Source: Candidatus Parcubacteria bacterium
Lineage (GTDB): Bacteria > Patescibacteriota > Minisyncoccia > Phycocordibacterales > UBA5272
Direction: 5' to 3'
NCBI GenBank assembly: GCA_039805745.1
Contig: JBDLTQ010000014.1
Coordinates: 1-50,533, forward strand
DNA: 50,533 nucleotides
Position 1 is the first letter of the stretch. Each line of letters opens with the position of its first letter. The notes beneath the pieces are model-generated. The model saw only the letters and a program-made list of their open reading frames with translations. It was not told the DNA's origin and searched no databases. Shown one piece after another: positions 30,729-44,541 of the stretch. A program made the translations under genes and the position numbers.

Positions 30729-32456
30729 CTAAACAGATTGCTCTAACTTTTTTTCAATCTCTTTCTCTGTTATCTCAAGTCGTTTTTTGAACTTCTTAAG
30801 TATCGCCTGTTCTTCTTTGGTGAGCTCACGTTTACGCTCTGCTTTTACAAGTACATCATGAAACTCTTCAATATCACGACGAAGCGCTGAAACATTCACC
30901 CTAAGTGTACTCTCTGCTTCTTTTAGGTTACGCTTCACCTTACGACGGAATCGTCTAAACTGAACAAATGAATACCATAATGTTGCGAGCACCATGAGAA
31001 CTGCAATCACAATAATAAGTATCACGGAGAGCCAATTCATGACAAAGATACCGAGACGAAGTAGTACCATTCTTTCAACAACAATAACTTTTGTGTCAGT
31101 ATAGTCACTAATAGAACCACGACCATCCGAAACTCTTGCTCGCATTTCGTATACACCAGAATCAAGACGACTACTCCATACAAGTGTGAATACTCCAGCC
31201 TCATTTGAAGAAGCATGTTCTGTGAAGGTCTTTCCTTCAGCATTTGTAAGCACTACTTCTATTTGTGATTGCGGATATGTTGCACCAACAACCTTAAAAC
31301 GAGTATCAAAATCTACTTTCTTTGTGTACTCAGTAATGACAGGAGGGGCAATAGCCTGAATAGTCACATCAAGAGTTACTGTGCTTACATTTCCAGCATT
31401 ATCAATAGCGCTCACAACAACAGAATGATTACCGGCAGACTGTTTTGGTAAACGATATAAATGAGAAGAATCAACAGGAAACTCTATTGGCTGTCCATTA
31501 TCAATACTAAGAGTAATCTTGTTTACACCTGAAAGAGAATCCTCTGCTTGAACAGAAACGGCAGGTGTCTGATTAGTCGTAACAGCCCCATCTGGGAATG
31601 AAGCCTTGAGTGACTCAGGCGGCTGAGAGTCTACAAGGAATGCGTAGGTTGCTTTACTCCCCCATCCACTCTTGTTTTTAAACTGAACATGCATATAAAA
31701 CGTACCATCACTCTCAACAGTAAAGGAACGATTTGTTACAGGTGGATCATATACCTTAGATGGTGTATCAGATTCTTTTTCGCTATAAATAGTTCGAATA
31801 GCAATCACCCCACTTGGGACTTTCCATTCAAACGATGCATCTTTTCTGCTGTACCATTTTGTGCTATCTGGATGTGTTGGAGAAGTAATAACCGGAACAA
31901 CAGACGCGCTCACCTGAGTAGAGGGAGCGCTCACAGCGTCTTCTTCATTAATATACACAAATGCTGATCCTGTTGTTTTCAAAACATCTGTTGCGTTACC
32001 ATCATTAGCTAGAACTGACCCCTGTTTTATGGCGACACTTACATTGCCTGCCTGTTTAGCTTTAAAAGTAACCGTGACTACTTTTCCTGATGCTTTACTA
32101 TACCCTGGATTAAGAGCAACTCCTTCGAGAGACACCGTTCCTTTTGTATTAGAAAAAGCCGGCTCTTCTGCCCAAAGAGTAATAAAAGAACCACTCTTAG
32201 AGAGGGAGAGTACTTCTAATGCATCAGAAGGAAATGAGAGTGATGCAGATACAGCATTGATAGACTCAATATTATTTGTCACCATAATATCAACAGAAAA
32301 TGTCTTGCCAACTTTTGTAGAAACAGAAGATGGACTAACAATAAGATTAGCAGCGAAAGTTACCTGAAATGCACAAACAACACTTGCAATAAGAATAAGA
32401 AAACGAGTAGGTGGTCTATGTTGTTTGAGAAAGGAAGAAATGATTTCTTTTAGCAT
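30729..32456 (-). CDS. Cohesin-domain surface protein with Ig-like domains, C-terminal TM and cytoplasmic coiled coil
   Basis: Signal peptide. Cohesin-like module LIVSPSSVSTKVGKTFSVDIMV...VTVTFKAKQAGNVSVAI. Ig-like segments (SGVNKITLSIDNG, AIDNAGNVSTVTLDV). TM WLSVILIIVIAVLMVLATLWY. K/E-rich tail. Confidence 0.7.
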   Translation of the reverse strand: MLKEIISSFLKQHRPPTRFLILIASVVCAFQVTFAANLIVSPSSVSTKVGKTFSVDIMVTNNIESINAVSASLSFPSDALEVLSLSKSGSFITLWAEEPAFSNTKGTVSLEGVALNPGYSKASGKVVTVTFKAKQAGNVSVAIKQGSVLANDGNATDVLKTTGSAFVYINEEDAVSAPSTQVSASVVPVITSPTHPDSTKWYSRKDASFEWKVPSGVIAIRTIYSEKESDTPSKVYDPPVTNRSFTVESDGTFYMHVQFKNKSGWGSKATYAFLVDSQPPESLKASFPDGAVTTNQTPAVSVQAEDSLSGVNKITLSIDNGQPIEFPVDSSHLYRLPKQSAGNHSVVVSAIDNAGNVSTVTLDVTIQAIAPPVITEYTKKVDFDTRFKVVGATYPQSQIEVVLTNAEGKTFTEHASSNEAGVFTLVWSSRLDSGVYEMRARVSDGRGSISDYTDTKVIVVERMVLLRLGIFVMNWLSVILIIVIAVLMVLATLWYSFVQFRRFRRKVKRNLKEAESTLRVNVSALRRDIEEFHDVLVKAERKRELTKEEQAILKKFKKRLEITEKEIEKKLEQSV

Positions 32457-33372
32457 AAAGGTACGCCACTACACATATGATGAGTATAGTTATATGTATC
32501 AGTATACGCGATAATAAAGAGATGCGGTGAGAGTTTTCAACAGGTTGAATCGTTTCGATTGCATACGAGTTATTAGCATATACTATTTTAATATGAAGAT
32601 ACTTTGACCTATCTTGATGTATAAGCATGTATGGTGATGAAACAGCTCGCCACTCATACGAAGCAACAGCTTGCGCACTCACCGCATCACTCTCAGCAAC
32701 AAAGATCTGCTCTATTGGACTATATGATTCTTTTTCTGTGACACTAAGATACCACGCATTACGATAAACAAGATCACTTCGTGAGAGAGATATTAATAAA
32801 TTACTACTACTCACCTGTTTCTCTGGGAGAGATGTAAGTGTCGGCCTTATAGGAAGACTCTTCACATCAACACGTTCTACCACCTGAGTAGTAGGAATAG
32901 ATGTCGCCCTCTCATTAAAAGTATTAAGAGTGATTGTATCTATTGTAAGAAGACTCTCACCTCTTTTTTTAGGAATAAGAATAAGAGAAAAAGCTTTACC
33001 ATCTTTTACACCGTCATAATACGCACTACGCACTCCACTAAAACCACCAGCAAAAATACCTTCAAACGTCACATGTGTCCTGTTATCAAGATATCGCTCA
33101 TCAGAAACATGAGGATACACAACCCATGGAGTAACAACACTACCACTTGTAGTTATTGTATAAACATCAAACATATCACTCTGGAATGAAAAATCACCAG
33201 CTACACCACTTAACGGTACCCCTTCTGGAGCAATGAACACATCGACAACAAAGGGTTGTCCGTCTTTTGGTATCCCTTGTGAAAAAACAAGACGTAGGGA
33301 AGCTGCAGACACTTGTAATGTAGCAACACTAATAGTAGAAACTATAATAATAGTACGTAAAAAATATCTCAT
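32416..33372 (-). CDS. Cohesin-like surface protein with C-terminal TM anchor
   Basis: Signal peptide ending VSA-AS. LRLVFSQGIPKDGQPFVVDVFIAPEG...GDFSFQSDMFDV is cohesin-like. C-terminal TM ILIHITILIICVVAYLY. Confidence 0.6.
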   Translation of the reverse strand: MRYFLRTIIIVSTISVATLQVSAASLRLVFSQGIPKDGQPFVVDVFIAPEGVPLSGVAGDFSFQSDMFDVYTITTSGSVVTPWVVYPHVSDERYLDNRTHVTFEGIFAGGFSGVRSAYYDGVKDGKAFSLILIPKKRGESLLTIDTITLNTFNERATSIPTTQVVERVDVKSLPIRPTLTSLPEKQVSSSNLLISLSRSDLVYRNAWYLSVTEKESYSPIEQIFVAESDAVSAQAVASYEWRAVSSPYMLIHQDRSKYLHIKIVYANNSYAIETIQPVENSHRISLLSRILIHITILIICVVAYLYAKRNHFFLSQTT

Positions 33373-33376
33373 ATAG

Positions 33377-34360
33377 TTATCCAGTCCAGCAATATGCCAA
33401 AATACTAAGGTCTGTTAAATTAATTTTCCCGTCAGAACTAAGATCAACCTTTACAGGAAAACCGAGCCGTTTATACCAAAAGGCCATAATACTAAAATCA
33501 AGAATATTCACCCTGTTGTCATTATTTAAATCACAACGTTTTCTAAAACCAGCTAATTCTTTTGTTTGTGTTCTAATCCTATCAGTATCGCCCACTCGAA
33601 ATGGTACGGTTTGAGAATAGGGAGAAAGGTCATCTACAGTAAGTGATCTAGCTTTACCGTCATGATCACCAAGTTCAAGCTCACTTGAATCAAGTTTATA
33701 CAACCACGACCCTTGTGAATTGGCTTTTGTTTTTTTGAGAAGTTCTGTATCTGAATGAAATGAAAGCCTCACTTCAGCATCAGGACTTGATCTTCCAAGA
33801 AAAGTAATAATCTCTCCACGCTTTACTTCTACTTTATCAGAAGTAATAGTTGGTGGAATAAAAATACCATCAACTATTGTTGTCACACCAGAAGTGACAT
33901 AGATCGTAAATGTAAGCAGCTTTGAAGTACGTCGTTCTGTATCTTCTGCCCTCACCCCAAAACTATAGGTACCTTGTGTAAGATTACGAAGGCGTATTTC
34001 GAAAGTTCCATTTGGACTCGCAGGCATTTCAGCAACAATACTGCCGTTTTTAAGAAGAGAAATAACACTTCCCGGATAAGCTAATCCTTTAAACACTGCA
34101 ACATCTGTTGTGTCTATAGTAATAGGTGCAATCGGACTTGTTGGTGGAATAGGTGGTGTATCAGGGTACACAATAGGAGGCTGAGGAACAACAGCTGATA
34201 TAGATATATCAACAGTAAGAGGGTTCGTTGTAGTTACTTGCGCAAAAAGAAAGTAATACGGAAAAGAAAACAGTACAAAAAAAAGAAAAAATCTTTGTAT
34301 TATTTTTTTTAAAGACACTCCTACTCTTTTGCCGCTGCTCGCGCTTGCTTGATAATCCAT
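33377..34360 (-). CDS. Dockerin-containing exported protein with two Ig/CarboxypepD_reg-like domains
   Basis: Two EF-hand-like dockerin segments at the C-terminus, DLNNDNRVNILD and DLSSDGKINLTD (33380..33535). The ATG at 34360 overlaps the upstream gene by 40 nt. A GTG at about 34315 (SLKKIIQRFFLFF...) would remove the overlap. Confidence 0.75.
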   Translation of the reverse strand: MDYQASASSGKRVGVSLKKIIQRFFLFFVLFSFPYYFLFAQVTTTNPLTVDISISAVVPQPPIVYPDTPPIPPTSPIAPITIDTTDVAVFKGLAYPGSVISLLKNGSIVAEMPASPNGTFEIRLRNLTQGTYSFGVRAEDTERRTSKLLTFTIYVTSGVTTIVDGIFIPPTITSDKVEVKRGEIITFLGRSSPDAEVRLSFHSDTELLKKTKANSQGSWLYKLDSSELELGDHDGKARSLTVDDLSPYSQTVPFRVGDTDRIRTQTKELAGFRKRCDLNNDNRVNILDFSIMAFWYKRLGFPVKVDLSSDGKINLTDLSILAYCWTG

Positions 34361-35298
34361 CGGTTATATCGCTTAACGAGAATCATGAGAAGAACAATAA
34401 CAAGAAGCACCGCAACAAGTACGACTGTTATTAAGTGCCATGGGAAGATAAAATACGTAAGAGAAGCATTCGCTGTCCCAGAATTACCAAATGTAAGTCC
34501 AAGATCTGCAGTGTACATACCAAGAGCAAAATGCTTCATTTGAAATTTAACATGATCAAAAAATGGAGCAGAGACAGCTGGCGCATCTACATCTCCTAGA
34601 CGAAATTCAAATTTGCGAGTACTTCCTGGGAGAACATTTCCTTGTGATGGGTTTGCATTAATATTTGCAACATCACCACCAAACATATTAGTAATCACAA
34701 CACTACCTTCTGGCTTCGCTCTATCGTTACCTGTGTTATTAAATTTATATACAAAATCAACAGGAAGACTAGTGAAAACTTTATCTCCATCCTTAGTAGC
34801 AAAAGACGAAAGTCCTCCGCTTTCTTTGATATCTCCAGTTACACGAAGAAGGATAAGCATACCAATCTTTGAACCAACAGAGACTTGCCCTTCTTCAGCA
34901 GATGGAGGAACTGTTGAGAGAAAGATAGCTGCAAAATGCCCGCCTGATTCAGCTTCTTGTGGAATAGTCACCGTATATGGTACCGCAAGACGCTCCCCCT
35001 TTTTAATTACCACCTTTTCTGCAATAGTTACCCATGTAGAAAGCCCTTCTTGTGCTTGAATAAAGTTCGGGGTACCTGTTTCCCCTTGCGCGTCAAAAGC
35101 TTCAACAGAAGTATACAAGACTTGATCTGTATCTTGCTCATTAATAACAGTGAATGTTTTTGTGATGGTCTCACCTTTGTCACCCGTTAATTCTTCACGA
35201 GCAGGAGATACCGTGAGAGCAAAGGCACTCTGCACACTAAGCGCAGTAACAAGAAGTGAGGCAGATGCTATTTTTTTTACTATAGATGTAGCTGTCAT
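34321..35298 (-). CDS. DUF916/DUF3324-like cell-surface protein with C-terminal TM anchor
   Basis: Signal peptide (..SAFA-LTVSP), two beta-rich halves (..GGHFAAIFLS.. and ..NVLPGSTRKFEF..), C-terminal TM ITVVLVAVLLVIVLLMILV followed by KRYNRW. Same architecture as CscA/DufA proteins of WxL loci. Confidence 0.55.
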   Translation of the reverse strand: MTATSIVKKIASASLLVTALSVQSAFALTVSPAREELTGDKGETITKTFTVINEQDTDQVLYTSVEAFDAQGETGTPNFIQAQEGLSTWVTIAEKVVIKKGERLAVPYTVTIPQEAESGGHFAAIFLSTVPPSAEEGQVSVGSKIGMLILLRVTGDIKESGGLSSFATKDGDKVFTSLPVDFVYKFNNTGNDRAKPEGSVVITNMFGGDVANINANPSQGNVLPGSTRKFEFRLGDVDAPAVSAPFFDHVKFQMKHFALGMYTADLGLTFGNSGTANASLTYFIFPWHLITVVLVAVLLVIVLLMILVKRYNRWIIKQARAAAKE

Positions 35299-35319
35299 GA
35301 ATGATTCGTTATTAAATTA

Positions 35320-36441
35320 CTAGAAGTTAGCCGTTGCTACATACACGAGACTTGCGGCATATGTACCAGCTTCTGTAATAGCTGAAATGTTGGCAAGATA
35401 ACGAAGAGAGAGAGTTGATGTGAGTGTTGCTCCCGACCCTGTAGCAAAAAGAGCTGATGTTGTAGCTGTGCCATCATATCCATACGATGTAGCACCTGAA
35501 AATGTCTGATCTACAGTCACACCAGTACCGCCAGTTTCTGTAGCACGAATACCGAACTGCTCAGTTCCTGCAGTAGATGAGGCGTACGATGCACCAATAT
35601 AAGAAATTGTATTCGCCGAATTCTGTTGTGATGTAAGAGTCTGTCCACGAACTGTAAGTGCGAATCCAGATGGCGCATTAGTGGATACTCCAAGTGTGTG
35701 TGCGATTGTTTCTGTTGTATCTCCTGAAGTATTGGTAGATGAAGCAAACTTAGCTGCGCCTGATCCTAGGTTTCCAAAATAGATAGTAGATGTAGAGATA
35801 GTAAAGGTGAGAGATTGAGGAACAGTTCCTGTCATAGCAACAGTGTCATCGTTAATGATTGTTGTGGTGATAGACCCTGTGTCAGTAAAACTACCAGCTA
35901 CGAGAATCTCGTAGCTCCCTGGTGTCGCTGGGTTGGTGATTTGTGATACACCTGTTGCTCCAGAGGTAGCATTAGAACCTATTTCGATCTGTATACAACG
36001 GTTAGCTGGAATAACTGCTGTACCTGAAGTGATGGTAATAGTCTGAGATCCTTGAGCAACTCCCCATGTGAGTCCTGATGCTGATGAGGAAACAAGAGCG
36101 TCAGTAAATCCTGAACAAGTAGCAGAAGTACTTGTCGCAAGGTCTATATTATTCACATTAAAGCTTCCCATAGTATACCCTGCAGGAAAAGTAAGGGTAA
36201 TATTCTGTCCGGCTGCAACACCTGTTGGTGTAACAAACTGAATAGTGTGATCAGAGAGGGTGTTTATCTTTACTGATGACTGAGAATCTGAAAGAGATGA
36301 CAGCGCTGCTGCATGAACTATCTCAACATGAGTGATAGACACACCGAGAACAACCGCAAAAATAGTGAGAGCGCTCACACAAGAGGATATAAAATTTTTC
36401 TTCAACATAACAAAATAAATTACTACTAAAATACAGGTCAT
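35320..36441 (-). CDS. Exported protein, paralog 1, with Trp-less WxL-like C-terminal domain
   Basis: Signal peptide ..VEIVHA-AALSS. Shares roughly three quarters of residues (by eye) with the next gene. C-terminal about 160 aa shared with the 1091-aa protein; ends YVATANF. An alternative ATG at 36408 aligns with the paralog start. Confidence 0.85.
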   Translation of the reverse strand: MTCILVVIYFVMLKKNFISSCVSALTIFAVVLGVSITHVEIVHAAALSSLSDSQSSVKINTLSDHTIQFVTPTGVAAGQNITLTFPAGYTMGSFNVNNIDLATSTSATCSGFTDALVSSSASGLTWGVAQGSQTITITSGTAVIPANRCIQIEIGSNATSGATGVSQITNPATPGSYEILVAGSFTDTGSITTTIINDDTVAMTGTVPQSLTFTISTSTIYFGNLGSGAAKFASSTNTSGDTTETIAHTLGVSTNAPSGFALTVRGQTLTSQQNSANTISYIGASYASSTAGTEQFGIRATETGGTGVTVDQTFSGATSYGYDGTATTSALFATGSGATLTSTLSLRYLANISAITEAGTYAASLVYVATANF

Positions 36442-36462
36442 GATCTCTACATCATTGTCTGT

Positions 36463-36513
36463 ACCTATAAGTGTACCATTTTAAGGTAAATATGCAGGAA
36501 AAAGTGTGGATAA
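36463..36513 (-). promoter_or_regulatory. Candidate promoter/operator: TTATCCACA ... TATAGGTA
   Basis: Minus strand reads TTATCCACACTTTTTCC..(36 nt)..ATAGGT, 22 nt before the ATG at 36441. Confidence 0.4.
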
Positions 36514-36530
36514 GATACACAATAAACAAA

Positions 36531-37616
36531 TCAGTAGTTAGCGGCGGCAACATAAACAACACTTGCTACATACGTACCAGCTTCTGTTGTACCTCCGATG
36601 TTAGCAACATATCTAATAGAATACGTTGAAGTATTAGTTGCGCCAGACCCCGTTGCGAACACAGCAGATGTTGTAGCGGTTGCGTCATATCCATAAGATG
36701 TTGCAGCGCTATATGTTGCATCGACAGTAGCCCCTGTTCCACCAGATACTGTAGCACGAATACCGAACTGCTCAGTTCCTGGAGTAGATGACGCCGCGGA
36801 AGAACCCATCGCAGTAATAGTATTAGAAGAACTCTGTTGTGATGTAAGAGTCTGCCCACGAACTGTAAGTGTGTATCCAGTAGAAGCATTAGTAGACACA
36901 CCGAGCGTATGAGCAATTGTTTCTGTTGCGTCCCCTGAAGTATTGGTAGATGAAGCAAACTTAGCAGCACCTGATCCTAGGTTTCCAAAATAGATAGTGG
37001 TGGTAGAAATAGTAAAAGTAATAGACTGCTGTACCGTAGCACTAATCACAACCGTATCGTCTGTAATAATATTCTGTGTAATACTCCCAGAATCAGGACC
37101 AGCAATAACAGTGATTGCGTATGATCCTGGTGTCGTTGGGTTGGTAATCTGTGTAGCCCCGTTTGCTGATGATGTTGCGTTAGAACCAATCTGAATCTGC
37201 ACACAACGGTTGGCAGGAATAACGGCAGTACCTGATGTGATATACACCGTCGCCGTCGCTTGAGTAACACCCCATGTGAGTCCAGATGCCGCACCTGACT
37301 GAATAAGTGCATCAGTAAAACCAGAACACGTAGCGGATGTGGATGTAGCAAGATCGAAGTTAGCAATAGCAAAAGTTCCCGTTGCGTAGTTAGATGGAAA
37401 AGTAATACTAATTCCTTGACCAGCAGAAAGACCTGTTGGTGTCACGAACTGAACAGTATGATCAGAGAGGGTGCTTACTTTTACTGATGACTGAGTATCT
37501 GAAAGACTAGAAAGTGCAGCAGCAAAAACAATCTCGACATGAACAATCGAGACACCAAGAACAATGCTTATAACGGTAAGCCAACTGACACACCACTTAA
37601 AGGAATTACTTTTCAT
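36531..37616 (-). CDS. Exported protein, paralog 2, with Trp-less WxL-like C-terminal domain
   Basis: Signal peptide ..VEIVFA-AALSS. Two conserved Cys (ATCSGFTD, PANRCVQI). Ends YVAAANY. Confidence 0.85.
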   Translation of the reverse strand: MKSNSFKWCVSWLTVISIVLGVSIVHVEIVFAAALSSLSDTQSSVKVSTLSDHTVQFVTPTGLSAGQGISITFPSNYATGTFAIANFDLATSTSATCSGFTDALIQSGAASGLTWGVTQATATVYITSGTAVIPANRCVQIQIGSNATSSANGATQITNPTTPGSYAITVIAGPDSGSITQNIITDDTVVISATVQQSITFTISTTTIYFGNLGSGAAKFASSTNTSGDATETIAHTLGVSTNASTGYTLTVRGQTLTSQQSSSNTITAMGSSAASSTPGTEQFGIRATVSGGTGATVDATYSAATSYGYDATATTSAVFATGSGATNTSTYSIRYVANIGGTTEAGTYVASVVYVAAANY

Positions 37617-37634
37617 AGACGGATTGCACGATAC

Positions 37635-37687
37635 ACCTATTCATAGTCTAAGCATACCACGCAAACGAAAAGGCGTAGAGTGGATAA
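37635..37687 (-). promoter_or_regulatory. Candidate promoter/operator: TTATCCACT ... AATAGGTG
   Basis: Minus strand reads TTATCCACTCTACGCC..(38 nt)..ATAGGT, 19 nt before the ATG at 37616. A possible TTGCGT -35 lies about 18 nt upstream of ATAGGT. Confidence 0.35.
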
Positions 37688-37716
37688 TCTACAGTACTTC
37701 TACAAGAAAGAACTCT

Positions 37717-40700
37717 TTAGAAATTAGCAGTGACAACATAGACTAACCCTGTTGTATAATTTTCTGGTTCAGTAAGTGCAGAAATATTCGTAACATACCT
37801 CACTGAAAATGTTGTTGTTGCATTATCACCAACAGAGGCAGAGGCCACCTGACTTGAAGTTGTAGCCGTTCCAGCATACGCGAAACCGCTCGCTGCATAA
37901 GGAGCAGTCACAGTACCAGATCCACCAGAAGATGTCACACGCAAGCCAAACTGTTCTGTGCCGATAGTTGAAACAGTATTTGTACCACCTATTGCATTAA
38001 CAGTATATATACCAGCATTAAGTGTTTGACCTCGTACAGTAAGCATGTAGCCATTTGAAGCATTAGTGAGTACTTGTAGTGTATGAGCCTCGACCTCTGT
38101 ATCACTACCACTGCTATTTGTACTTGACGCATATCTTGCAATCACTGGAGAAGCTTGTCCTAAATAAATAGTAGATGTTGAAAGAATAAGCGTTAGTGAC
38201 TGCGCTGGTGCAGCGTTACTCTCTTCATCCCACTCGAACAAAAAACGATACCGCACAAGTGCATCTCCTTGTGTTTGCTCTTGGTAAAAAGCTAACCCTT
38301 CCCCTTCTTTTATCACAAGCTCATCACCGTAGTACACAGTACTCTCATAATCACCATACACTTGATTCACCGCACCCGGTGTGGTGACACCAAGAAGTCT
38401 AGAACTTGTTGCTCCTGAAAAAGTAGCTGAAAGGCCTGTTGTTCTTACTTCTGCAGTTGAAGTACTTGTACTTGAGTGCTTTTTTGGAATACTTGAGGAT
38501 GCTATGAGAGTACCGCCAGACGCTGTAGTAACACGGCGTATAGCAAGTGGTGTATACACAGGGGCGACACCTGTTCCACTTCGATCAGCACGCACCGCTA
38601 TTTTGCGTACCAGATAATTTTTACCAGAACCTGAAGGATTAAATAATGAAGAATATACATACCCTTGTGTTGTCGCTTGGTTTACTGGACCCGTTGTCAT
38701 AAGATACTCACTTTGAGAACTTGGCGATGAAGACTCTTCATCCCATTCAATGAGCATCTTAACTCTAAAATCAACATCCCCTGCAGAGGTGTCGTGGTAC
38801 AATCCTACCCCTTCCCCTGGCTGAAGCACAATATACTCTCTGTTACTAAACTCAATATCTTTATACCCAGTATTACCAGCAGAGGCTGAGGCAACTGCTC
38901 CTGGTGTCTGAATAGCTAATAATTTAGAATCTGTTGTACCAGAATATGTTGCCGTCACACCGGTGCGACGTATTTCCATAATACTGTTAGACGACCCTGT
39001 GTGTTTTTTTGGAATATTCGCTGCCGTTATTTGTGTACCAGCAGACGCGGAAGCAATACGACGTAATTGCATAGGAATATACACCGCAGTAGTAACAGCA
39101 TCAACACGTAAAGATACTCTTCGTATAATAGCTGTCTTACCAGAACCAACGGGGTTAAAAAATGTTGCATAATTATAGCTTGTCGCAGTACTTCCATTTA
39201 TCGGCCCTATATCTACAATATATTCACCCTGTGAAGATGGTGCTGATGCCTCCTCATCCCATTCCACCATAATCTTTATATAATCATCAACATCAGCTGT
39301 CGCACTATTGTACAGACCGATACCCTCACCTTCTTGAAGAATTATTTTTTCATTTCCTTCAAAAACTATTTCTCGTTGACCTATTGTTTGTCCAACTGCA
39401 CCAGGTGTGTTTACACTAAGAATATTAGAATCTGTTGTTCCTGAATAGGTAGCAGTTATCACCGAAGCACAAGCTGATCCACACCATCTAATCTGCATCG
39501 TACTTGACGCAGAGTCTGTATTCTTCTGTGGAACACTTGATGTGGCAATAAGTGTTCCACCAGACGCTGCGGTTATTCTTCTAAAACTAAAGGAGACATA
39601 GTTCGCGGTTGTGTCTGCATTAATACGTATTACCAACCGTTTTATAACAGCAACTTTTCCAGAACCTGATGGATTAAAAAAAGAATAGTGAGTTGTGTTC
39701 GCAGCTGAAGCAGACTCAACCCTTGATGAAGCCCAGAGGTACCCACCTTCTGCTGTTGGTGTATTAGCAGCTGAGACTTCTTGCCATTCTATAATCATAC
39801 GAACAAGCTGATCTGTATCTCCTGCTGTTTCAGATAACAAGGCTACCCCTTCACCTTGCTGTAAAATAAGTTTTTCATCACCTTCATAAAAATCTAACTG
39901 TTGCCAACCACTAGCCTGACCAGCTGCGCCACATGGAGTAACATTTGCAATACGTGCATCCGCTCCACCTACTACTGTCTCTGTTGGATTTGTATGACGG
40001 AATTCCATAACACTATCTGCAGAACTGGTATTTTTTTTAGGGATATTTGTCGATGTCACTTGTGTACCACCAGTTGACGCAGAGATACGTTGAAGTACAA
40101 GATTATTGGTATATACCGCCGCCGCATCACAAGTCTCTGAGCCAAACCAGATACGTTTTACTATTGCTGTCTTACCAGAAGAGCTCGGATTAAAAAAAGA
40201 ATTATACGTATACCCTATGGCTGCGTTAGCTTCCACTCGGGGGAAAGAGTAAAGAAATTCATCTTGAGATGCTGGTGCATTAACCGTCTCATCCCACTCA
40301 ATAAGAACAAGTACTTTTGAGTTTGTGGTTCCAGCAGCTTCCTGATACACAGCAACACCTTCTCCTGGCTGAATAACCAGCTTCTCATCATTTTGACCAA
40401 AGGTTATATCTCGTCCACTTTGATATGCTCCAACAGCACCAGATAATGGCTGTCCTATAATACGAGAATCAGTAGTCCCAGATAAGGTAACGGATGGTCC
40501 AGCTTGACGAATTTCTACAACAGAATCACTCGAGGCAGTATTTTTCTTTGGATAATTAGTAGCTGTTATCTGAGCACCTCCTGATGAGGTAGAGATTCTA
40601 CGCATTGTGAGATTCACGTAATTAGAAGCAGATGACGTAGTATTAGAACGTATAGCGATGCGTTTAATGGAAGCCGTCCTGCCAGAGCCTGATGGATTCA

Positions 40701-40992
40701 TAAAAGAAGCATAGACATAATTAGCAGATGCAGACCCATCAACAGGACCAATATCGACAACATATTCTCTTTCTCCTGAATTGACCGCCGCATGTACTGT
40801 CGTTCCCTTAAAATAGACATCAACCACATTTGGATTTTTTGAAGCAAGATACATCATATCTACAACCTTACCCCTCGGATGAATAACTTCCTGATAGACA
40901 ACGTACGATAAAGTCGCTGGATCAACTCCAGAAAAAAGCATCGAAATGATGTACACCCCCGCCAGTGTTTTTTTAATAAGGTCTCGCAACAT
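37717..40992 (-). CDS. 1091-aa exported protein: five tandem ~170-aa modules plus the shared WxL-like C-terminal domain
   Basis: N-terminal anchor/signal AGVYIISMLFSG. Repeats at aa 76-244, 245-416, 417-589, 590-761 and 762-932. C-terminal aa 933-1091 is about half identical (by eye) to the paralog C-termini; ends YVVTANF. Confidence 0.9.
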   Translation of the reverse strand: MLRDLIKKTLAGVYIISMLFSGVDPATLSYVVYQEVIHPRGKVVDMMYLASKNPNVVDVYFKGTTVHAAVNSGEREYVVDIGPVDGSASANYVYASFMNPSGSGRTASIKRIAIRSNTTSSASNYVNLTMRRISTSSGGAQITATNYPKKNTASSDSVVEIRQAGPSVTLSGTTDSRIIGQPLSGAVGAYQSGRDITFGQNDEKLVIQPGEGVAVYQEAAGTTNSKVLVLIEWDETVNAPASQDEFLYSFPRVEANAAIGYTYNSFFNPSSSGKTAIVKRIWFGSETCDAAAVYTNNLVLQRISASTGGTQVTSTNIPKKNTSSADSVMEFRHTNPTETVVGGADARIANVTPCGAAGQASGWQQLDFYEGDEKLILQQGEGVALLSETAGDTDQLVRMIIEWQEVSAANTPTAEGGYLWASSRVESASAANTTHYSFFNPSGSGKVAVIKRLVIRINADTTANYVSFSFRRITAASGGTLIATSSVPQKNTDSASSTMQIRWCGSACASVITATYSGTTDSNILSVNTPGAVGQTIGQREIVFEGNEKIILQEGEGIGLYNSATADVDDYIKIMVEWDEEASAPSSQGEYIVDIGPINGSTATSYNYATFFNPVGSGKTAIIRRVSLRVDAVTTAVYIPMQLRRIASASAGTQITAANIPKKHTGSSNSIMEIRRTGVTATYSGTTDSKLLAIQTPGAVASASAGNTGYKDIEFSNREYIVLQPGEGVGLYHDTSAGDVDFRVKMLIEWDEESSSPSSQSEYLMTTGPVNQATTQGYVYSSLFNPSGSGKNYLVRKIAVRADRSGTGVAPVYTPLAIRRVTTASGGTLIASSSIPKKHSSTSTSTAEVRTTGLSATFSGATSSRLLGVTTPGAVNQVYGDYESTVYYGDELVIKEGEGLAFYQEQTQGDALVRYRFLFEWDEESNAAPAQSLTLILSTSTIYLGQASPVIARYASSTNSSGSDTEVEAHTLQVLTNASNGYMLTVRGQTLNAGIYTVNAIGGTNTVSTIGTEQFGLRVTSSGGSGTVTAPYAASGFAYAGTATTSSQVASASVGDNATTTFSVRYVTNISALTEPENYTTGLVYVVTANF
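38197..40767 (-). repeat. Five in-frame tandem coding repeats of about 510 nt (169-173 aa)
   Basis: Each unit carries Y-x-Y-x-[ST]-F-[FM]-N-P-[SV]-G-S-G-[KR], [IV]-[KR]-R-[IV], L-x-R-I, S-G-G-[TA], [IY]-P-[KQ]-K-[NH]-T, G-T-T-D-S, P-G-A-V, E-K-[LI]-[IV]-L-Q-x-G-E-G, and [IVF]-E-W-[DQ]-E. The DNA copies are diverged. Confidence 0.9.
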
Positions 40993-41968
40993 AGTGATAT
41001 ACTTCTTCGCCTATTACCTTAAACAACTGTTCTATTTCTTTTCGCTTAAACTCATCACCATTTTTTTGTTGTATCATAACAGTGAGAATGTACGGTCTTC
41101 CAGACACATACACAATACCAGAATCTGCCATCACTTTTTCATCTAAACGAATACCTGTTTTATGAACAAAAGGTACGTCAGATGGTATTCCTGTACTAAG
41201 AAGATCATTAGGCGCTTGTTCAAGTATATCCATAAAAAGTTCTGAATGTTTTTGGTCTAAAAATGTCGCATTATACAGTGATCGAAAAAAAATAGAGTAT
41301 CGCTTCGCGGTAATACGATTATCAACCTCTTTGTCTTTTTTATTTCTTTTGAGGGCCTCGATAACATCATCCATACCAAGGTGCACATACACATCTTCAA
41401 GCTCTGCGTTTTCGAGATTGCGAAGCAGTATAAAGTGTGCCGTGTTATCAGAATTAATAAGGGATTCTTTAAGCAGGTTCTCAATAGCTATTGTTGTTCC
41501 ATTTGGTTTTTTGTATAACTCACCATAATCACTATCTTTATCCTCTTCCAAAATAACAAGCTCGTTAGAAAGTTTCCAATCTCCCTCTTGCACTTTCTTC
41601 ATTGCTGTCATAGCAACAGGAATTTTAATAAGACTTGCAGGCCACATTCGCTCATCTTTATTGATCGCAATACTTGCTCCAGTTGGAAGATACTCAAAAT
41701 AAATAGAAATGAGAAAATCATCACGATGCTCATATGTGGTTGTGAGCTTTTCTCGAAGCGTTTGAAAATCAACAATAAGATTCCTTTTATCAAGGATACG
41801 AAGTGCTGGATTAAGATAACGATTATCAACACCCATAGAAGACTCATTAGAATGAAGTGTGATATACAGCACAAAAATAACAAACATACTAATAACGCTT
41901 ATAAGTGCAACCTTATATCGATTGATTATTTTTTTACTATCTGGTGTTGTAGTGGTACGATACTGCAT
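40973..41968 (-). CDS. Membrane-anchored class-A beta-lactamase-fold serine hydrolase
   Basis: N-terminal TM VALISVISMFVIFVLYITL. SxxK (ASLIK), SDN (INSDNTAH), KTG (HKTGIR). The stop overlaps the start of the 1091-aa gene by 20 nt. Confidence 0.75.
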   Translation of the reverse strand: MQYRTTTTPDSKKIINRYKVALISVISMFVIFVLYITLHSNESSMGVDNRYLNPALRILDKRNLIVDFQTLREKLTTTYEHRDDFLISIYFEYLPTGASIAINKDERMWPASLIKIPVAMTAMKKVQEGDWKLSNELVILEEDKDSDYGELYKKPNGTTIAIENLLKESLINSDNTAHFILLRNLENAELEDVYVHLGMDDVIEALKRNKKDKEVDNRITAKRYSIFFRSLYNATFLDQKHSELFMDILEQAPNDLLSTGIPSDVPFVHKTGIRLDEKVMADSGIVYVSGRPYILTVMIQQKNGDEFKRKEIEQLFKVIGEEVYHYVARPY

Positions 41969-41970
41969 AG

Positions 41971-44541
41971 TTATTCAACAATGGACACAGAGCTCTCTTC
42001 AGAAGAACCTTCTGTTGTCTCTTTTTTTTCTTCGACAGGAAGATTCAGATTACTAATAGCATCTTCGTCGAGAACTTTATCAAGTTCAAGTTTTTTTCGA
42101 AGCGCTTCAGCAACTAACACATCATCATCAGAAAAAACCTCACCTGTTTCCCTGCTATAAAACACAAACCCACCAGAAGAAATAATAACCTCAAAAGGTA
42201 CACCTTCGAAGGATACATGTCCACGCTCTCCATGTGACACATCAAACGGTTGTAGAGCTTGCTCTAGTATACTATTTGTAGTGAGATTATATGCATACAC
42301 GATACTCCTATCATTAGACAACCAAAAGACATGTCCAGCTTTAACCCCAATAGGATAGTCCCCCGCAAAAGAAGTACTTGAACCTGTGTCAATTTTTTGT
42401 TGAGTTCCTTTTTCTACATCATATAACCACAACTCCTCTCGAGACTCTTTTTCCACCTGAACAATAATTGCATTCAAAAATGTCCCTTTTATCTTCTTAA
42501 TAATATCAAGAGCAAAGTCAGGAACTCTCTCCTCTTTCTCTTGTATATCTAAAGCTTCTTTATCTTTTTTGGTTATCTCTTCAATGAGAGACTGCGTTGC
42601 TATTGTTTTTTCTACCACACCGTTATATTTAAGCCATTTATTTTTTGGCATCACTGGTTGTATAGGGGTTGTGGTACTGTTATTTTTTTGTATAACAGTT
42701 GAGGTTGATACCTGTAGTGGTGTCGTAGTCCCCATTTCTGAAGATGTTGCTTGTGAGGTCGTTGAAGTAGGAAGTAAAATCAAAGCATCTGTACTGCTTG
42801 CTGTGTGAAGAAGTGAGGAACTCGCCTCTACTAAAGAAGTAGTAACAGTACTTGTAGCCTCCTGTTCGAGATACATATACCAGATTTCTTCTTTGTTGGT
42901 TTCATTGTTAATAATAGTCACAACACGCACACCATTAAGCACTTCATCATTAAGTATGGTATCACGCGTAAAATCTGGATGGGTATACACAAGAGCACCC
43001 TCATAGAGAACTTCTACTTTTACTGCGTCAAGATAGACAGTTGGTGTCTCATCAATTGATTTTTTTGAAACAATTTTTATCTGAAGCTGACTCATATCTT
43101 TCCATGTAGTTGAAGCGGTAACAGGTATCTCAAATGTACGGTACTTCATAGAAATTTCATTAAGCTCACCAAGAGATGTCCATAAAACACCATCAAATGT
43201 ATAGATAATCTCAAGAAAATTATTTTGTGTATCATTTGCTTCTGTTACAACCTCTTGAGGTGTAGAGGCAGTCTGTTCAAGAGACGTGGCGGCAATGGTA
43301 GAAGTCGACGGCGCTACATCAGTTGATGTTGCGGTAGATGTCGATACAATACTAGTGAGGTTCTCATTAGTTGAGGAAGCTGTAGAGCTCTCACTCGCTG
43401 CTGTGTCTTGAGAAAGAGAGGTCTGACTAGACTGTTCGTTATCGATAGAATTAGGGAGAGATTGTTCATTACTTTCTGTTGTTGTACTCATTGTGGCAGT
43501 ACTCTCTGTAGAATGAGTAGTGTCCACGATACTATCACCCTCTTCTGCAAACACTGTTGGTGCCACAAAAGAAGAAATATTAAACAACAAAGACTCAAGT
43601 AGTGATGTTGGTTCTGGTTGTGTTTCTGTCTCTTTCGGAGAAGATTGATCTACAGAAGGTGTCTGTGTTTCAGGTGAGGATGTCTCTCCTACTTGAGACT
43701 CTTCTTTCTGAGGAATCGGAGCAATCACTGTATCTGTTTCTGTAGGAAGAGTACTAGTATTCTCAAAAAGATCAGCTACAACATCTTTAACTGAGTCAAA
43801 AAGAGTACCGAAAAAAGTTTGTGAACCGTCATGAGAAGAACTTGTCGCTATCTCACTTGTAGAAGAAGTAACTACTTCAGTACTCGCTGTTGCTGGCGCA
43901 CCTAACACAGTAGAGGAACTCTCTTCCGAAGAAGTACTAGAAGTAGCTGTCAAAGAAGCCCCATCTAAAGAAGAAGATGCCTGCAAAAGAGTGAACGATA
44001 CTTCTGTTGTAGAAGCGGTATCAAGAATAGCTTGTGAAGACGATGCAAACGTCTCTCCATGAATCATCTCTTCAAGAACAAGTTCATCGCCTTTTGTCAT
44101 AGCAAATGAGACGAGTATCTTTACGGGTGTTGTTGTATCATCAAATGTTCCAGAAAAGTTTCCACAGTAGATTTCAGCCTGAGTATTCTTTGGAAGCACC
44201 GCGGAATTACTTGATGTAAATAACGTAACATCACCATTAGATGCAGTTTGTGGCTCGCCTTCTGCATTACGAGGATTCACCCATCCACCCAAACATGTAT
44301 CAGGGTGAAATATTACACTATCAGCTTTTCCTTTTGGAGAAATAAAATTACCGAGCACGAGCAACAACACCAAGGTTGAAAGCGTCATCATGAGACGTTT
44401 CTTTTGAAGTGTCTTATCAACTTGTTTTGAATATTCAAAAACCAAGCCCTCCAAAGACTTCGTTACATTATCCACATGTGACGTTACTTCTGGAAACTTC
44501 TTCGAAATAATACGTGGTCGTTTAAGATGGAATTTGCCCAT
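41971..44541 (-). CDS. 856-aa signal-anchored Ser/Thr-rich surface protein, unknown function
   Basis: TM LMMTLSTLVLLLVLGNFI, long S/T/E-rich low-complexity tracts, structured middle and C-terminal segments. Ends 2 nt before the next gene. Confidence 0.8.
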   Translation of the reverse strand: MGKFHLKRPRIISKKFPEVTSHVDNVTKSLEGLVFEYSKQVDKTLQKKRLMMTLSTLVLLLVLGNFISPKGKADSVIFHPDTCLGGWVNPRNAEGEPQTASNGDVTLFTSSNSAVLPKNTQAEIYCGNFSGTFDDTTTPVKILVSFAMTKGDELVLEEMIHGETFASSSQAILDTASTTEVSFTLLQASSSLDGASLTATSSTSSEESSSTVLGAPATASTEVVTSSTSEIATSSSHDGSQTFFGTLFDSVKDVVADLFENTSTLPTETDTVIAPIPQKEESQVGETSSPETQTPSVDQSSPKETETQPEPTSLLESLLFNISSFVAPTVFAEEGDSIVDTTHSTESTATMSTTTESNEQSLPNSIDNEQSSQTSLSQDTAASESSTASSTNENLTSIVSTSTATSTDVAPSTSTIAATSLEQTASTPQEVVTEANDTQNNFLEIIYTFDGVLWTSLGELNEISMKYRTFEIPVTASTTWKDMSQLQIKIVSKKSIDETPTVYLDAVKVEVLYEGALVYTHPDFTRDTILNDEVLNGVRVVTIINNETNKEEIWYMYLEQEATSTVTTSLVEASSSLLHTASSTDALILLPTSTTSQATSSEMGTTTPLQVSTSTVIQKNNSTTTPIQPVMPKNKWLKYNGVVEKTIATQSLIEEITKKDKEALDIQEKEERVPDFALDIIKKIKGTFLNAIIVQVEKESREELWLYDVEKGTQQKIDTGSSTSFAGDYPIGVKAGHVFWLSNDRSIVYAYNLTTNSILEQALQPFDVSHGERGHVSFEGVPFEVIISSGGFVFYSRETGEVFSDDDVLVAEALRKKLELDKVLDEDAISNLNLPVEEKKETTEGSSEESSVSIVE

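Follow-up and report, generated by a model that had tools for sequence, protein, structure and literature searches.

Pam pili and WxL clusters as reference systems

The Pam pilins PamA and PamB form the thin filaments of Candidatus Mycosynbacter amalyticus, a parasite belonging to the Candidate Phyla Radiation (CPR), and their structures (PDB 25PZ and 25QA) were determined by cryo-electron microscopy (cryo-EM) at 2.8 and 3.6 Å (Troman et al., 2026 preprint, bioRxiv 10.64898/2026.03.03.709456). Both pilins consist of an N-terminal β-sandwich, a single linker strand and a truncated immunoglobulin-like (Ig-like) C-terminal domain (CTD), and the filament is held together by donor-strand exchange, the linker strand of each subunit occupying the open CTD of the adjacent one; conservation in these proteins is highest in the donated linker and in the site that binds it. 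The operon also specifies PamC and PamD (WP_260763277.1, WP_260763284.1), PapD/FimC-like chaperones that, unlike Gram-negative chaperones, carry a C-terminal membrane helix. The system has been reported mainly from Saccharimonadia and Microgenomatia, and the preprint mentions neither Parcubacteria, nor Paceibacteria, nor WxL (bioRxiv 10.64898/2026.03.03.709456). Here, we describe a gene cluster from a Candidatus Parcubacteria bacterium (assembly GCA_039805745.1, contig JBDLTQ010000014.1, positions 1 to 50,533; this whole stretch of 50,533 nucleotides (nt) is referred to as the window), in which three genes, encoding proteins of 361, 373 and 1091 amino acids (aa) with a common C-terminal module, probably specify subunits of a Pam-type donor-strand-exchange pilus.

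The second point of comparison is the WxL cluster of Firmicutes, which comprises a small WxL protein, a large WxL protein and a WxLIP of DUF916-DUF3324-transmembrane architecture, and which is represented by the families PF13731, PF06030 and PF11797 and by the PDB entries 9i25 and 9i1y. Chain C of 9i25 and 9i1y, entries released in January 2026, were identified as DUF916-DUF3324 proteins by sequence (E 5e-43 to a Pfam-verified WxLIP). In the WxL domain, the two motifs, separated by ~106 residues in small WxL (PMC9772566), form a buried platform beneath a mobile N-terminal strand, and a strand of WxLIP is predicted to complete the WxL β-sandwich (PMC9772566, PMC10599100). By analogy, such a completion follows the logic of donor-strand complementation.

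A shared C-terminal module on diverse proteins

Paralogy extends over the full length of the 361- and 373-aa proteins (74% identity); the 1091-aa protein has only its C-terminal ~165 aa in common with them. A preliminary description of this DNA, made from the sequence alone, had presented all three as paralogs with a shared ~160-aa domain; this holds for the module, and it is refined by the finding that the two shorter proteins correspond end to end. Between residues 931-1091 of the 1091-aa protein and the 373-aa protein, identity is 52% over 166 aa (compositionally adjusted BLASTP, E 4e-38); the C-terminus of the 1091-aa protein aligns with the 361-aa protein at 53% identity over 138 aa (E 6e-29). 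In a MAFFT alignment, the three C-termini run without large gaps and show 78 invariant columns, as expected from the earlier claim that they align throughout, and each of the C-terminal motifs listed at that stage is found in the alignment of the three copies.

An exhaustive HMMER search of 1.84 billion representatives recovered the module in 662 clusters (50% identity) at E≤0.001. Its position is strictly C-terminal in all hosts, which range from ~160 to 3243 aa and have very diverse N-terminal parts; 18 of the 148 module representatives measure 260 aa or less, the smallest being barely more than a short leader followed by the module. A search of the window open reading frames (ORFs) with the module hidden Markov model (HMM) found no copy outside the three proteins. 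The named sources of the window proteins and of their homologues are metagenome-assembled genomes (MAGs) of Candidatus Parcubacteria or Pacebacteria, in accordance with a restriction of the Pam pilins to CPR/Patescibacteria. Among 146 representatives, conservation is highest, by a small margin (~2.7-2.9 versus 2.2-2.4 bits per column in the loops between the blocks), in the linker, in AHTL..TNA..GYxLTVxGxTL, in GTEQFG and in the last two strands.

The C-terminal region is rich in Ser, Thr, Ala and Gly, a composition from which one could suppose that the three proteins share nothing beyond the low-complexity likeness of Ser/Thr-rich sequences. This explanation has next to no probability and is refuted by the compositionally adjusted BLASTP match, by the invariant columns, by the presence of the module end to end in 662 clusters and by a confidently modeled fold, the predicted local distance difference test score (pLDDT) being 90-96 across the CTD of the 361-aa model. 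The C-terminal module, which would serve assembly, is attached to widely differing cargo, with giant repeat proteins reaching 3243 aa among it; this diversity bears on the ways in which ultrasmall episymbionts get to their hosts and hold on to them.

The module matches the Pam pilin family profile

All three C-termini exceed the curated cutoff (55 bits) of the NCBIfam model NF058581, 'CPR_Pam_pilin_C, Pam pilus system pilin subunit', with 59.7-68.7 bits (individual scores in Table 1). In each protein, the match spans profile positions 10-148 of 148 and reaches the last residue. No Pfam family matched the 361-, 373- or 1091-aa proteins. The preliminary description had proposed a divergent, Trp-less WxL-type domain; a confident match to a known pilin family speaks against that family assignment.

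To define the architecture of the pilins, a model of the 361-aa protein was generated with AlphaFold2 from an alignment of 48 sequences (mean pLDDT 88.6). The model consists of a helix at residues 4-32, interpreted as a signal peptide, an all-β region at residues 36-184 with ~10 strands, a strand at residues 199-203 that lies within QSITFTISTTTIYFG, and an all-β CTD. Two cysteines of the N-terminal domain (NTD), C97 and C138, are invariant. The predicted layout of signal peptide, β-sandwich NTD, single linker strand and truncated Ig-like CTD is that of the Pam pilins. Sequence searches of the PDB with the pilin, the pilin profile, the chaperone profile and the repeat region of the giant protein returned nothing meaningful. 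The sole domain-sized PDB match of the 361-aa model was the hypothetical protein TTHA1873 of Thermus thermophilus (7wwo_A, template modeling (TM) score of 0.59 on the target, 174 columns).

The 1091-aa protein has a hydrophobic N-terminus, followed by five tandem repeats of ~172 aa and then by the linker and CTD. Each repeat ends in EW[DQ]E, and the conserved motifs are FFNPSGSGK, RRI, PKKNT, GEG and EWDE; no Pfam, NCBIfam or PDB sequence match was obtained for the repeats. Its layout is unlike that of PamA and PamB in that the five repeats replace the NTD. The protein is most likely a specialized, adhesin-like subunit of the filament: it retains the putative donor strand and the acceptor domain and could therefore join the same fiber.

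The assignment to the Pam pilins is made because several features coincide, namely the NF058581 match, the pilin layout of the model, a chaperone-like neighbor, the CPR host, the conserved gene order and the C-terminal position of the module on varied cargo. Further points of likeness to the Pam system are the presence of two adjacent pilin paralogues, the two Ig-like domains and C-terminal transmembrane helix of the neighboring protein, and the lack of an usher. The locus extends the Pam pilus, which was described only in 2026, to Parcubacteria, another large CPR lineage, and it differs from the published system in several respects besides its host. One chaperone-like gene is present here in place of two (PamC and PamD), the 1091-aa subunit with its five novel repeats is an addition, and genes for dockerin-bearing and transmembrane-anchored partners are conserved together with the cluster.

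The 325-aa neighbor is chaperone-like and a remote relative of DUF916/WxLIP

The gene for a 325-aa protein begins 21 nt downstream of the 373-aa ORF. Its AlphaFold2 model (pLDDT 83.5) contains a signal helix, two β-sandwiches and a C-terminal helix at residues 287-324. In a Foldseek search of the PDB, the top match was 9i25_C, the Enterococcus faecium EfmWxLIP1 bound to a long WxL (E 2.4e-11), and 9i1y, with EfmWxLIP1 alone, was found as well; the chaperones CfaA, CsuC, Caf1M, EcpB and DraB of chaperone-usher systems matched at E 3e-10 to 2e-7. Vibrio RbmA also ranked among the top matches, which for WxLIP, RbmA and the chaperones lay at E 2e-11 to 3e-8. The architecture of the protein fits that of a putative membrane-anchored Pam chaperone of the PamC/PamD type.

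The sequence evidence leads to DUF916. Among 46 homologues of the 325-aa protein, PF06030 (WxLIP_PGBD, i.e., DUF916) was the commonest Pfam match (29/46, best E 0.003, all below the gathering score). A tblastn search of plasmids retrieved 'DUF916 domain-containing' proteins of Clavibacter and Cellulosimicrobium (E 2e-7 and 2e-5), and these actinobacterial matches themselves pass Pfam's DUF916 cutoff. An hhalign comparison of the family with 57 Firmicutes WxLIP proteins gave 81% probability and E 1.2e-5, the aligned part comprising 112 columns within the DUF916 domain, and the Firmicutes WxLIP HMM placed the 325-aa ORF first of the 207 window ORFs (E 0.019; family median 0.004). No similarity of the second domain to DUF3324 was detected in the Pfam scan of the 46 homologues or by hhalign. 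Judged from its sequence and predicted fold, the 325-aa protein is a remote DUF916/WxLIP homologue. The earlier statement that a DUF916-like gene lies directly downstream is accordingly correct, because both the sequence and the fold matches point to DUF916.

The most conserved stretch of the 325-aa family, VSVGxKxGMLxLL (residues 139-151), is invariant and adjoins a loop modeled with low confidence. Weak tblastn matches of the protein were also observed on Deinococcus plasmids (E 0.02-0.3). One homologue, with 54% identity and 20 member sequences, is labeled Polynucleobacter sp. in NCBI and probably represents a misbinned CPR contig.

The likeness to chaperone-usher pili (Pap/Fim, CFA/I, archaic Csu, Caf1) concerns the fold of the chaperone and the predicted assembly principle, in which an incomplete Ig-like subunit would be completed first by a strand of the chaperone and then by a strand of its neighbor. 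The differences are numerous: the system lacks an usher (no Pfam match among the nine cluster proteins) and an outer membrane, its chaperone has a membrane anchor, the part of donor strand falls to an internal linker and not to an N-terminal extension, and the subunits have an extra domain. In addition, PapD-family Pfam models matched none of the nine cluster proteins and were absent from the top families of the 46 chaperone homologues, among which PF06030 prevails.

The presence of this partner also bears on a reading of the three proteins as subunits of an S-layer or another two-dimensional surface array with a common C-terminal anchoring domain. Paralogous, secreted and abundant-looking β-proteins rich in Ser, Thr, Ala and Gly would suit such an array, and the 325-aa protein has one faint NCBIfam match to a 'putative S-layer protein' model (E 0.28); against this stand the specific pilin-family match, the chaperone-like partner gene and the lack of any SLH or S-layer family match, and we rejected the array as very improbable. 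The preliminary description had named an S-layer or fiber subunit with a conserved terminal strand as its alternative: the fiber subunit comes closest to the outcome, and the S-layer half found no family match.

Relationship of the module to the WxL domain

The proposal that the module is itself a WxL domain was examined with profile searches, with hhalign in local, global and low-mact modes on shallow and deep alignments, with column-shuffled, reversed and unrelated-β controls, and with the ranking of window ORFs by HMMs. No match to PF13731 at E≤10 was obtained for the three C-termini or for 48 homologues, contrary to the family assignment suggested earlier; as a positive control, Firmicutes WxL proteins from 68 loci match PF13731 at E 1e-36 to 1e-63. 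Trp occurs at neither motif position in any of the 146 module representatives, the residues being Tyr or Phe (141/5 at the first position and 137/7 at the second), which agrees with the Phe or Tyr that the preliminary description had read in place of Trp. A WxL HMM built here failed to single out the three proteins: the window pilins reached E 6-7 and ranked 8th and 11th of 207 ORFs.

Profile-profile comparison produced a faint signal in the expected register. With the deeper alignment, hhalign scored 19.8 (P 0.025) and placed AGxYxxxLtYv over AxxYxTxLTWxL, the second WxL motif; when the shallower alignment was used, GYxLTV over GWxLxV, the first WxL motif, came out as the best segment. The module-WxL score exceeds all 200 of 200 column shuffles (maximum 17.4), but unrelated β-rich domain pairs score 9-26 in the same comparison, a range that includes the 17-20 of module versus WxL, so the score is not evidence by itself. 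Real module sequences outscored reversed ones only marginally, at p 0.066 with the Firmicutes WxL HMM and at p 0.001 with an HMM of actinobacterial WxL-like proteins. Under realistic controls the signal is not significant. When the first domain of the 325-aa protein was compared with the WxL domain itself, hhalign gave 26.0 and 22.1 (P 0.001-0.008), above the module-WxL score; this could be generic Ig-like similarity or a hint of related chaperone and subunit domains. WxL domains are so divergent that phmmer, started from a small WxL protein of an enterococcus, misses the long-WxL chain in 9i25.

The anatomy of the two domains is closer than their profiles. Median spacings from FG to the first aromatic, between the two aromatics and from the second aromatic to the end are 36/103/6 in the CPR module, 41/106/8 in 41 small WxL domains of Firmicutes and 43/103/4 in actinobacterial WxL-like proteins. 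The N-terminal strands are also alike (LTFSISDNxIGFG in the module versus LSIDYASSLDFG in WxL), so that module and WxL domain share a strand L-[ST]-[FI]-x-[IY]-[SA]-x-x-x-x-F-G followed by two aromatic-x-hydrophobic strands at near-equal distances. Further features in common with Firmicutes WxL clusters are the strictly C-terminal position of the module, its occurrence in both small and large proteins, and a DUF916-type partner with two Ig-like domains and a transmembrane helix. Unlike those clusters, the locus has no recognizable DUF3324 and no LPxTG partner in addition to the missing PF13731 match, Trp residues and significant profile similarity, and WxL proteins are described as peptidoglycan-bound and not as filaments. 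The spacing and anatomy read from the sequences favor a deep relationship to WxL, for which the DUF916-like neighbor is the strongest evidence. The earlier notion that G-[FY]-x-L-T-V and L-V-Y-V occupy the positions of the WxL motifs agrees with the spacing and with the register of the best profile alignments, although these alignments are not significant. Similarly, the divergent Trp-less WxL-type domain does not survive as a family assignment in view of PF13731 and NF058581, but a Trp-less WxL relative beside a WxLIP-like gene is a reasonable deep-homology hypothesis because of the DUF916-like neighbor, the matching spacing and the motif register.

These similarities would also be expected if the module were a true, divergent WxL-type domain, that is, a non-polymerizing peptidoglycan anchor that is stabilized by the DUF916-like membrane protein and displays monomeric adhesins, as proposed for Firmicutes WxL. 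The remote DUF916/WxLIP homologue encoded downstream, the C-terminal position of the module throughout in small and large proteins, the anchor spacing close to that of small WxL and the local profile alignments that land on both WxL motifs all agree with such an anchor. We nevertheless consider it unlikely: none of the 48 homologues matches PF13731, Trp is missing from both motifs in the 146 representatives, the hhalign scores fall inside the range of unrelated β domains, the second domain of the 325-aa protein lacks similarity to DUF3324, and the profile that does match, NF058581, derives from proteins seen as filaments by cryo-EM.

Actinobacterial WxL-like proteins (Clavibacter, Cellulosimicrobium and Rathayibacter, on plasmids and chromosomes) resemble the CPR locus in that the gene of a small secreted β-protein precedes a gene for a DUF916 and transmembrane protein, in the spacing given above and in a second motif without Trp (ITLSLFE); among annotated proteins, it is their DUF916 proteins that are most closely related to the 325-aa protein. 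They differ in a first motif that retains Trp (GWYV) and in the lack of an N-terminal pilin domain. Although UniRef names these neighbors of true DUF916 genes 'WxL domain-containing', they reach just P 0.009 and 0.02 against Firmicutes WxL. As a bridge between module and WxL they were rejected, since they are marginal both to Firmicutes WxL and to the module (hhalign P 0.013), and the gap stays. The Cellulosimicrobium and Clavibacter plasmid pairs (L001:6046-7888 and L002:6041-7855) each consist of a gene for a ~210-aa secreted protein, without a Pfam hit, followed by the DUF916 and transmembrane gene, and lie amid GH43/LamG glycan-degradation genes.

Proposed assembly and ancestry of the system

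The sequence relationships, family matches, predicted folds and synteny suggest how polymerization, strand exchange, the chaperone strand and the roles and positions of the subunits could be arranged in a Pam-type pilus. Subunits would be secreted via Sec. The first ~15 residues of the module (QSLTFTISTSTIYFG in the 373-aa protein) would act as the linker strand, and the other ~150 aa would fold into an incomplete Ig-like domain whose groove is open. The 325-aa protein, presumably tethered to the membrane by its C-terminal helix, would cap the groove of new subunits with a strand of its own, for which VSVGxKxGMLxLL is the candidate, and it may also anchor the fiber. The linker strand of the next subunit would then displace the chaperone strand, and the fiber would grow. 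In the resulting filament, the linker strand of each subunit would occupy the groove of its neighbor, a packing that would account for the conservation of the linker, of G-Y-x-L-T-V and of the terminal L-V-Y-V strands. The ~360-aa paralogues would correspond to PamA and PamB as the pilins of the shaft, and the 1091-aa protein would be incorporated in the same fiber as an adhesin-like subunit.

Several observations weigh against a Pam-type pilus. The NF058581 scores exceed the cutoff by just 5-14 bits, and the likeness to Pam was established from this profile and from the published descriptions of PamA-D. A whole-chain Foldseek search with the pilin model returned only generic two-domain Ig adhesins (MSCRAMMs, integrins) at a TM score of 0.2, and 9i25 was absent from its 50 best matches; because domain orientations differ, this search is uninformative on the CTD. 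A linker-less tip subunit of the PamT type is not recognizable among the cluster genes, as NF058579 reaches 19-22 bits versus a cutoff of 240 and all three module ORFs have the linker, and the cluster has no clear equivalent of PamR, the RbmA-like terminator or anchor of the Pam system. The ATP-synthase neighborhood reported for pam operons does not occur in the scanned flanks. The model of the 325-aa protein matches Vibrio RbmA by Foldseek as well as it matches chaperones, and the protein may be a chaperone, a PamR-like anchor or both. Finally, filaments in this lineage are predicted from the genes by analogy with Mycosynbacter.

As the 325-aa chaperone-like protein is a remote DUF916/WxLIP homologue, a common ancestry of the locus and the firmicute and actinobacterial WxL clusters is probable. 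A more far-reaching proposal, to which we give an even chance, is that a single ancient strand-complementation surface system of monoderms is represented both by the Pam pili of the CPR and by the WxL/WxLIP clusters known from Firmicutes and Actinobacteria. If so, WxLIP (DUF916) may be the membrane-anchored chaperone, the WxL domain may be the counterpart of the Pam acceptor domain, and the mobile N-terminal strand of WxL (GPLSIDYASSLDFG) may correspond to the donor or linker strand of Pam (here QSLTFTISTSTIYFG). Among the papers searched, none links WxL to Pam or, beyond passing mentions in reviews of 2012-13, to donor-strand or chaperone-usher systems, and a connection between Pam and WxL/WxLIP is apparently unreported. 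The tie between the 325-aa partner and DUF916/WxLIP by both sequence and fold turns the origin of Pam into a testable hypothesis. A common system would provide the evolutionary origin that the discoverers of Pam left open, and the WxL proteins of enterococci, listeriae and lactobacilli would be strand-exchanged oligomers or fibers and not simple peptidoglycan-bound monomers, a new mechanistic reading of clusters that are virulence or colonization factors in Enterococcus, Listeria and Lactobacillus.

Organization of the gene cluster

Nine genes, all on the minus strand, are packed tightly over 44541..30729, with junctions that overlap or leave at most 100 nt (Table 1); overlaps join the 331- and 1091-aa genes (20 nt), the 325- and 327-aa genes (40 nt) and the 318- and 575-aa genes (41 nt). 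The source contig belongs to a 'Candidatus Parcubacteria bacterium' MAG, in which all cluster proteins are annotated as hypothetical. The gene order (~850-aa Ser/Thr-rich protein, β-lactamase-family protein, ~1090-aa giant, 2-3 pilins, chaperone, dockerin/Big_6 protein, ~318-aa transmembrane protein and ~575-aa Big_13 transmembrane protein) is repeated in full in two further Parcubacteria contigs, and from the chaperone onward in a third; the cluster behaves as a single conserved unit. The true start of the 373-aa ORF is probably Met12 at 36408, which would give 362 aa, to judge from the NCBI call and the starts of homologues.

Table 1. Features of the cluster and their positions in the window.
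Feature	Position	Strand	Evidence
856-aa Ser/Thr-rich protein (41971-44541) and 331-aa β-lactamase-family protein (40973-41968)	40973..44541	-	ORFs; PF13354 E 6e-40; synteny
1091-aa giant protein, most likely an adhesin-like subunit	37717..40992	-	ORF; NF058581 59.7 bits over residues 959-1091; repeats aligned
Five tandem ~172-aa repeats, residues 61-923 of the 1091-aa protein	38224..40812	-	Five-repeat alignment
Shared module, residues 930-1091 of the 1091-aa protein	37720..38205	-	Alignment; BLASTP E 4e-38
Putative linker/donor strand QSLTLILSTSTIYLG, residues 931-945 of the 1091-aa protein	38158..38202	-	Alignments
361-aa pilin: predicted signal peptide, ~160-aa β-sandwich NTD, linker strand and C-terminal acceptor domain	36531..37616	-	ORF; NF058581 68.7 bits (residues 225-361); AlphaFold2
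Shared module, residues 196-361 of the 361-aa pilin	36534..37031	-	Alignment; module HMM E 3e-56
Putative linker/donor strand QSITFTISTTTIYFG, residues 197-211 of the 361-aa pilin	36984..37028	-	Conservation in 146 representatives; model strand 199-203; role by analogy with PamA/PamB structures
Second pilin paralogue, 373-aa ORF	35320..36441	-	74% identity to the 361-aa pilin; NF058581 65.0 bits
Shared module, residues 208-373 of the 373-aa ORF	35323..35820	-	Alignment; module HMM E 2e-52
Putative linker/donor strand QSLTFTISTSTIYFG, residues 209-223 of the 373-aa ORF	35773..35817	-	Alignments
325-aa membrane-anchored two-β-sandwich protein; putative Pam chaperone and/or anchor, remote DUF916/WxLIP homologue	34321..35298	-	AlphaFold2; Foldseek; PF06030; hhalign; tblastn
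327-aa (Big_6 and dockerin), 318-aa (C-terminal transmembrane segment) and 575-aa (Big_13 and transmembrane segment) proteins; overlapping genes	30729..34360	-	Pfam; synteny in three other Parcubacteria contigs

On one side, the cluster is flanked by genes for a glyoxalase, a YkuD transpeptidase and a peptidoglycan-binding protein, and on the other by genes for an FAD oxidase, a ROK-family protein, PGI and a GH15 enzyme. Promoter-like sites across the cluster are at background (43 found versus 40.1 expected). Terminator-like sites reach about twice the shuffle mean (17 versus 8.6, standard deviation 2.9), and none lies at an obvious operon boundary.

Accompanying genes and composition

The product of the first cluster gene, the 856-aa protein, has long Ser/Thr-rich low-complexity stretches and no family match. 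The gene of the β-lactamase-family protein lies directly upstream of the giant gene, overlaps it and is retained in relatives; as a speculation, its product may be a wall-remodeling enzyme for the passage of the pilus. At the other end of the cluster, the 327-aa protein combines Big_6 with a type I dockerin motif, and the transmembrane-anchored 318- and 575-aa proteins have in common an N-terminal domain of ~100 aa (29% identity, E 3e-8) that looks cohesin-like by eye and has no Pfam hit. The three proteins may form a cohesin-dockerin tether tied to the pilus cluster. With regard to base composition, GC skew is positive solely at 34001-38000 (+0.03) and negative in the remainder of the window, and GC content peaks at 34001-40000 (0.41-0.425), which probably reflects the Thr/Ser/Ala/Gly-rich pilin genes.

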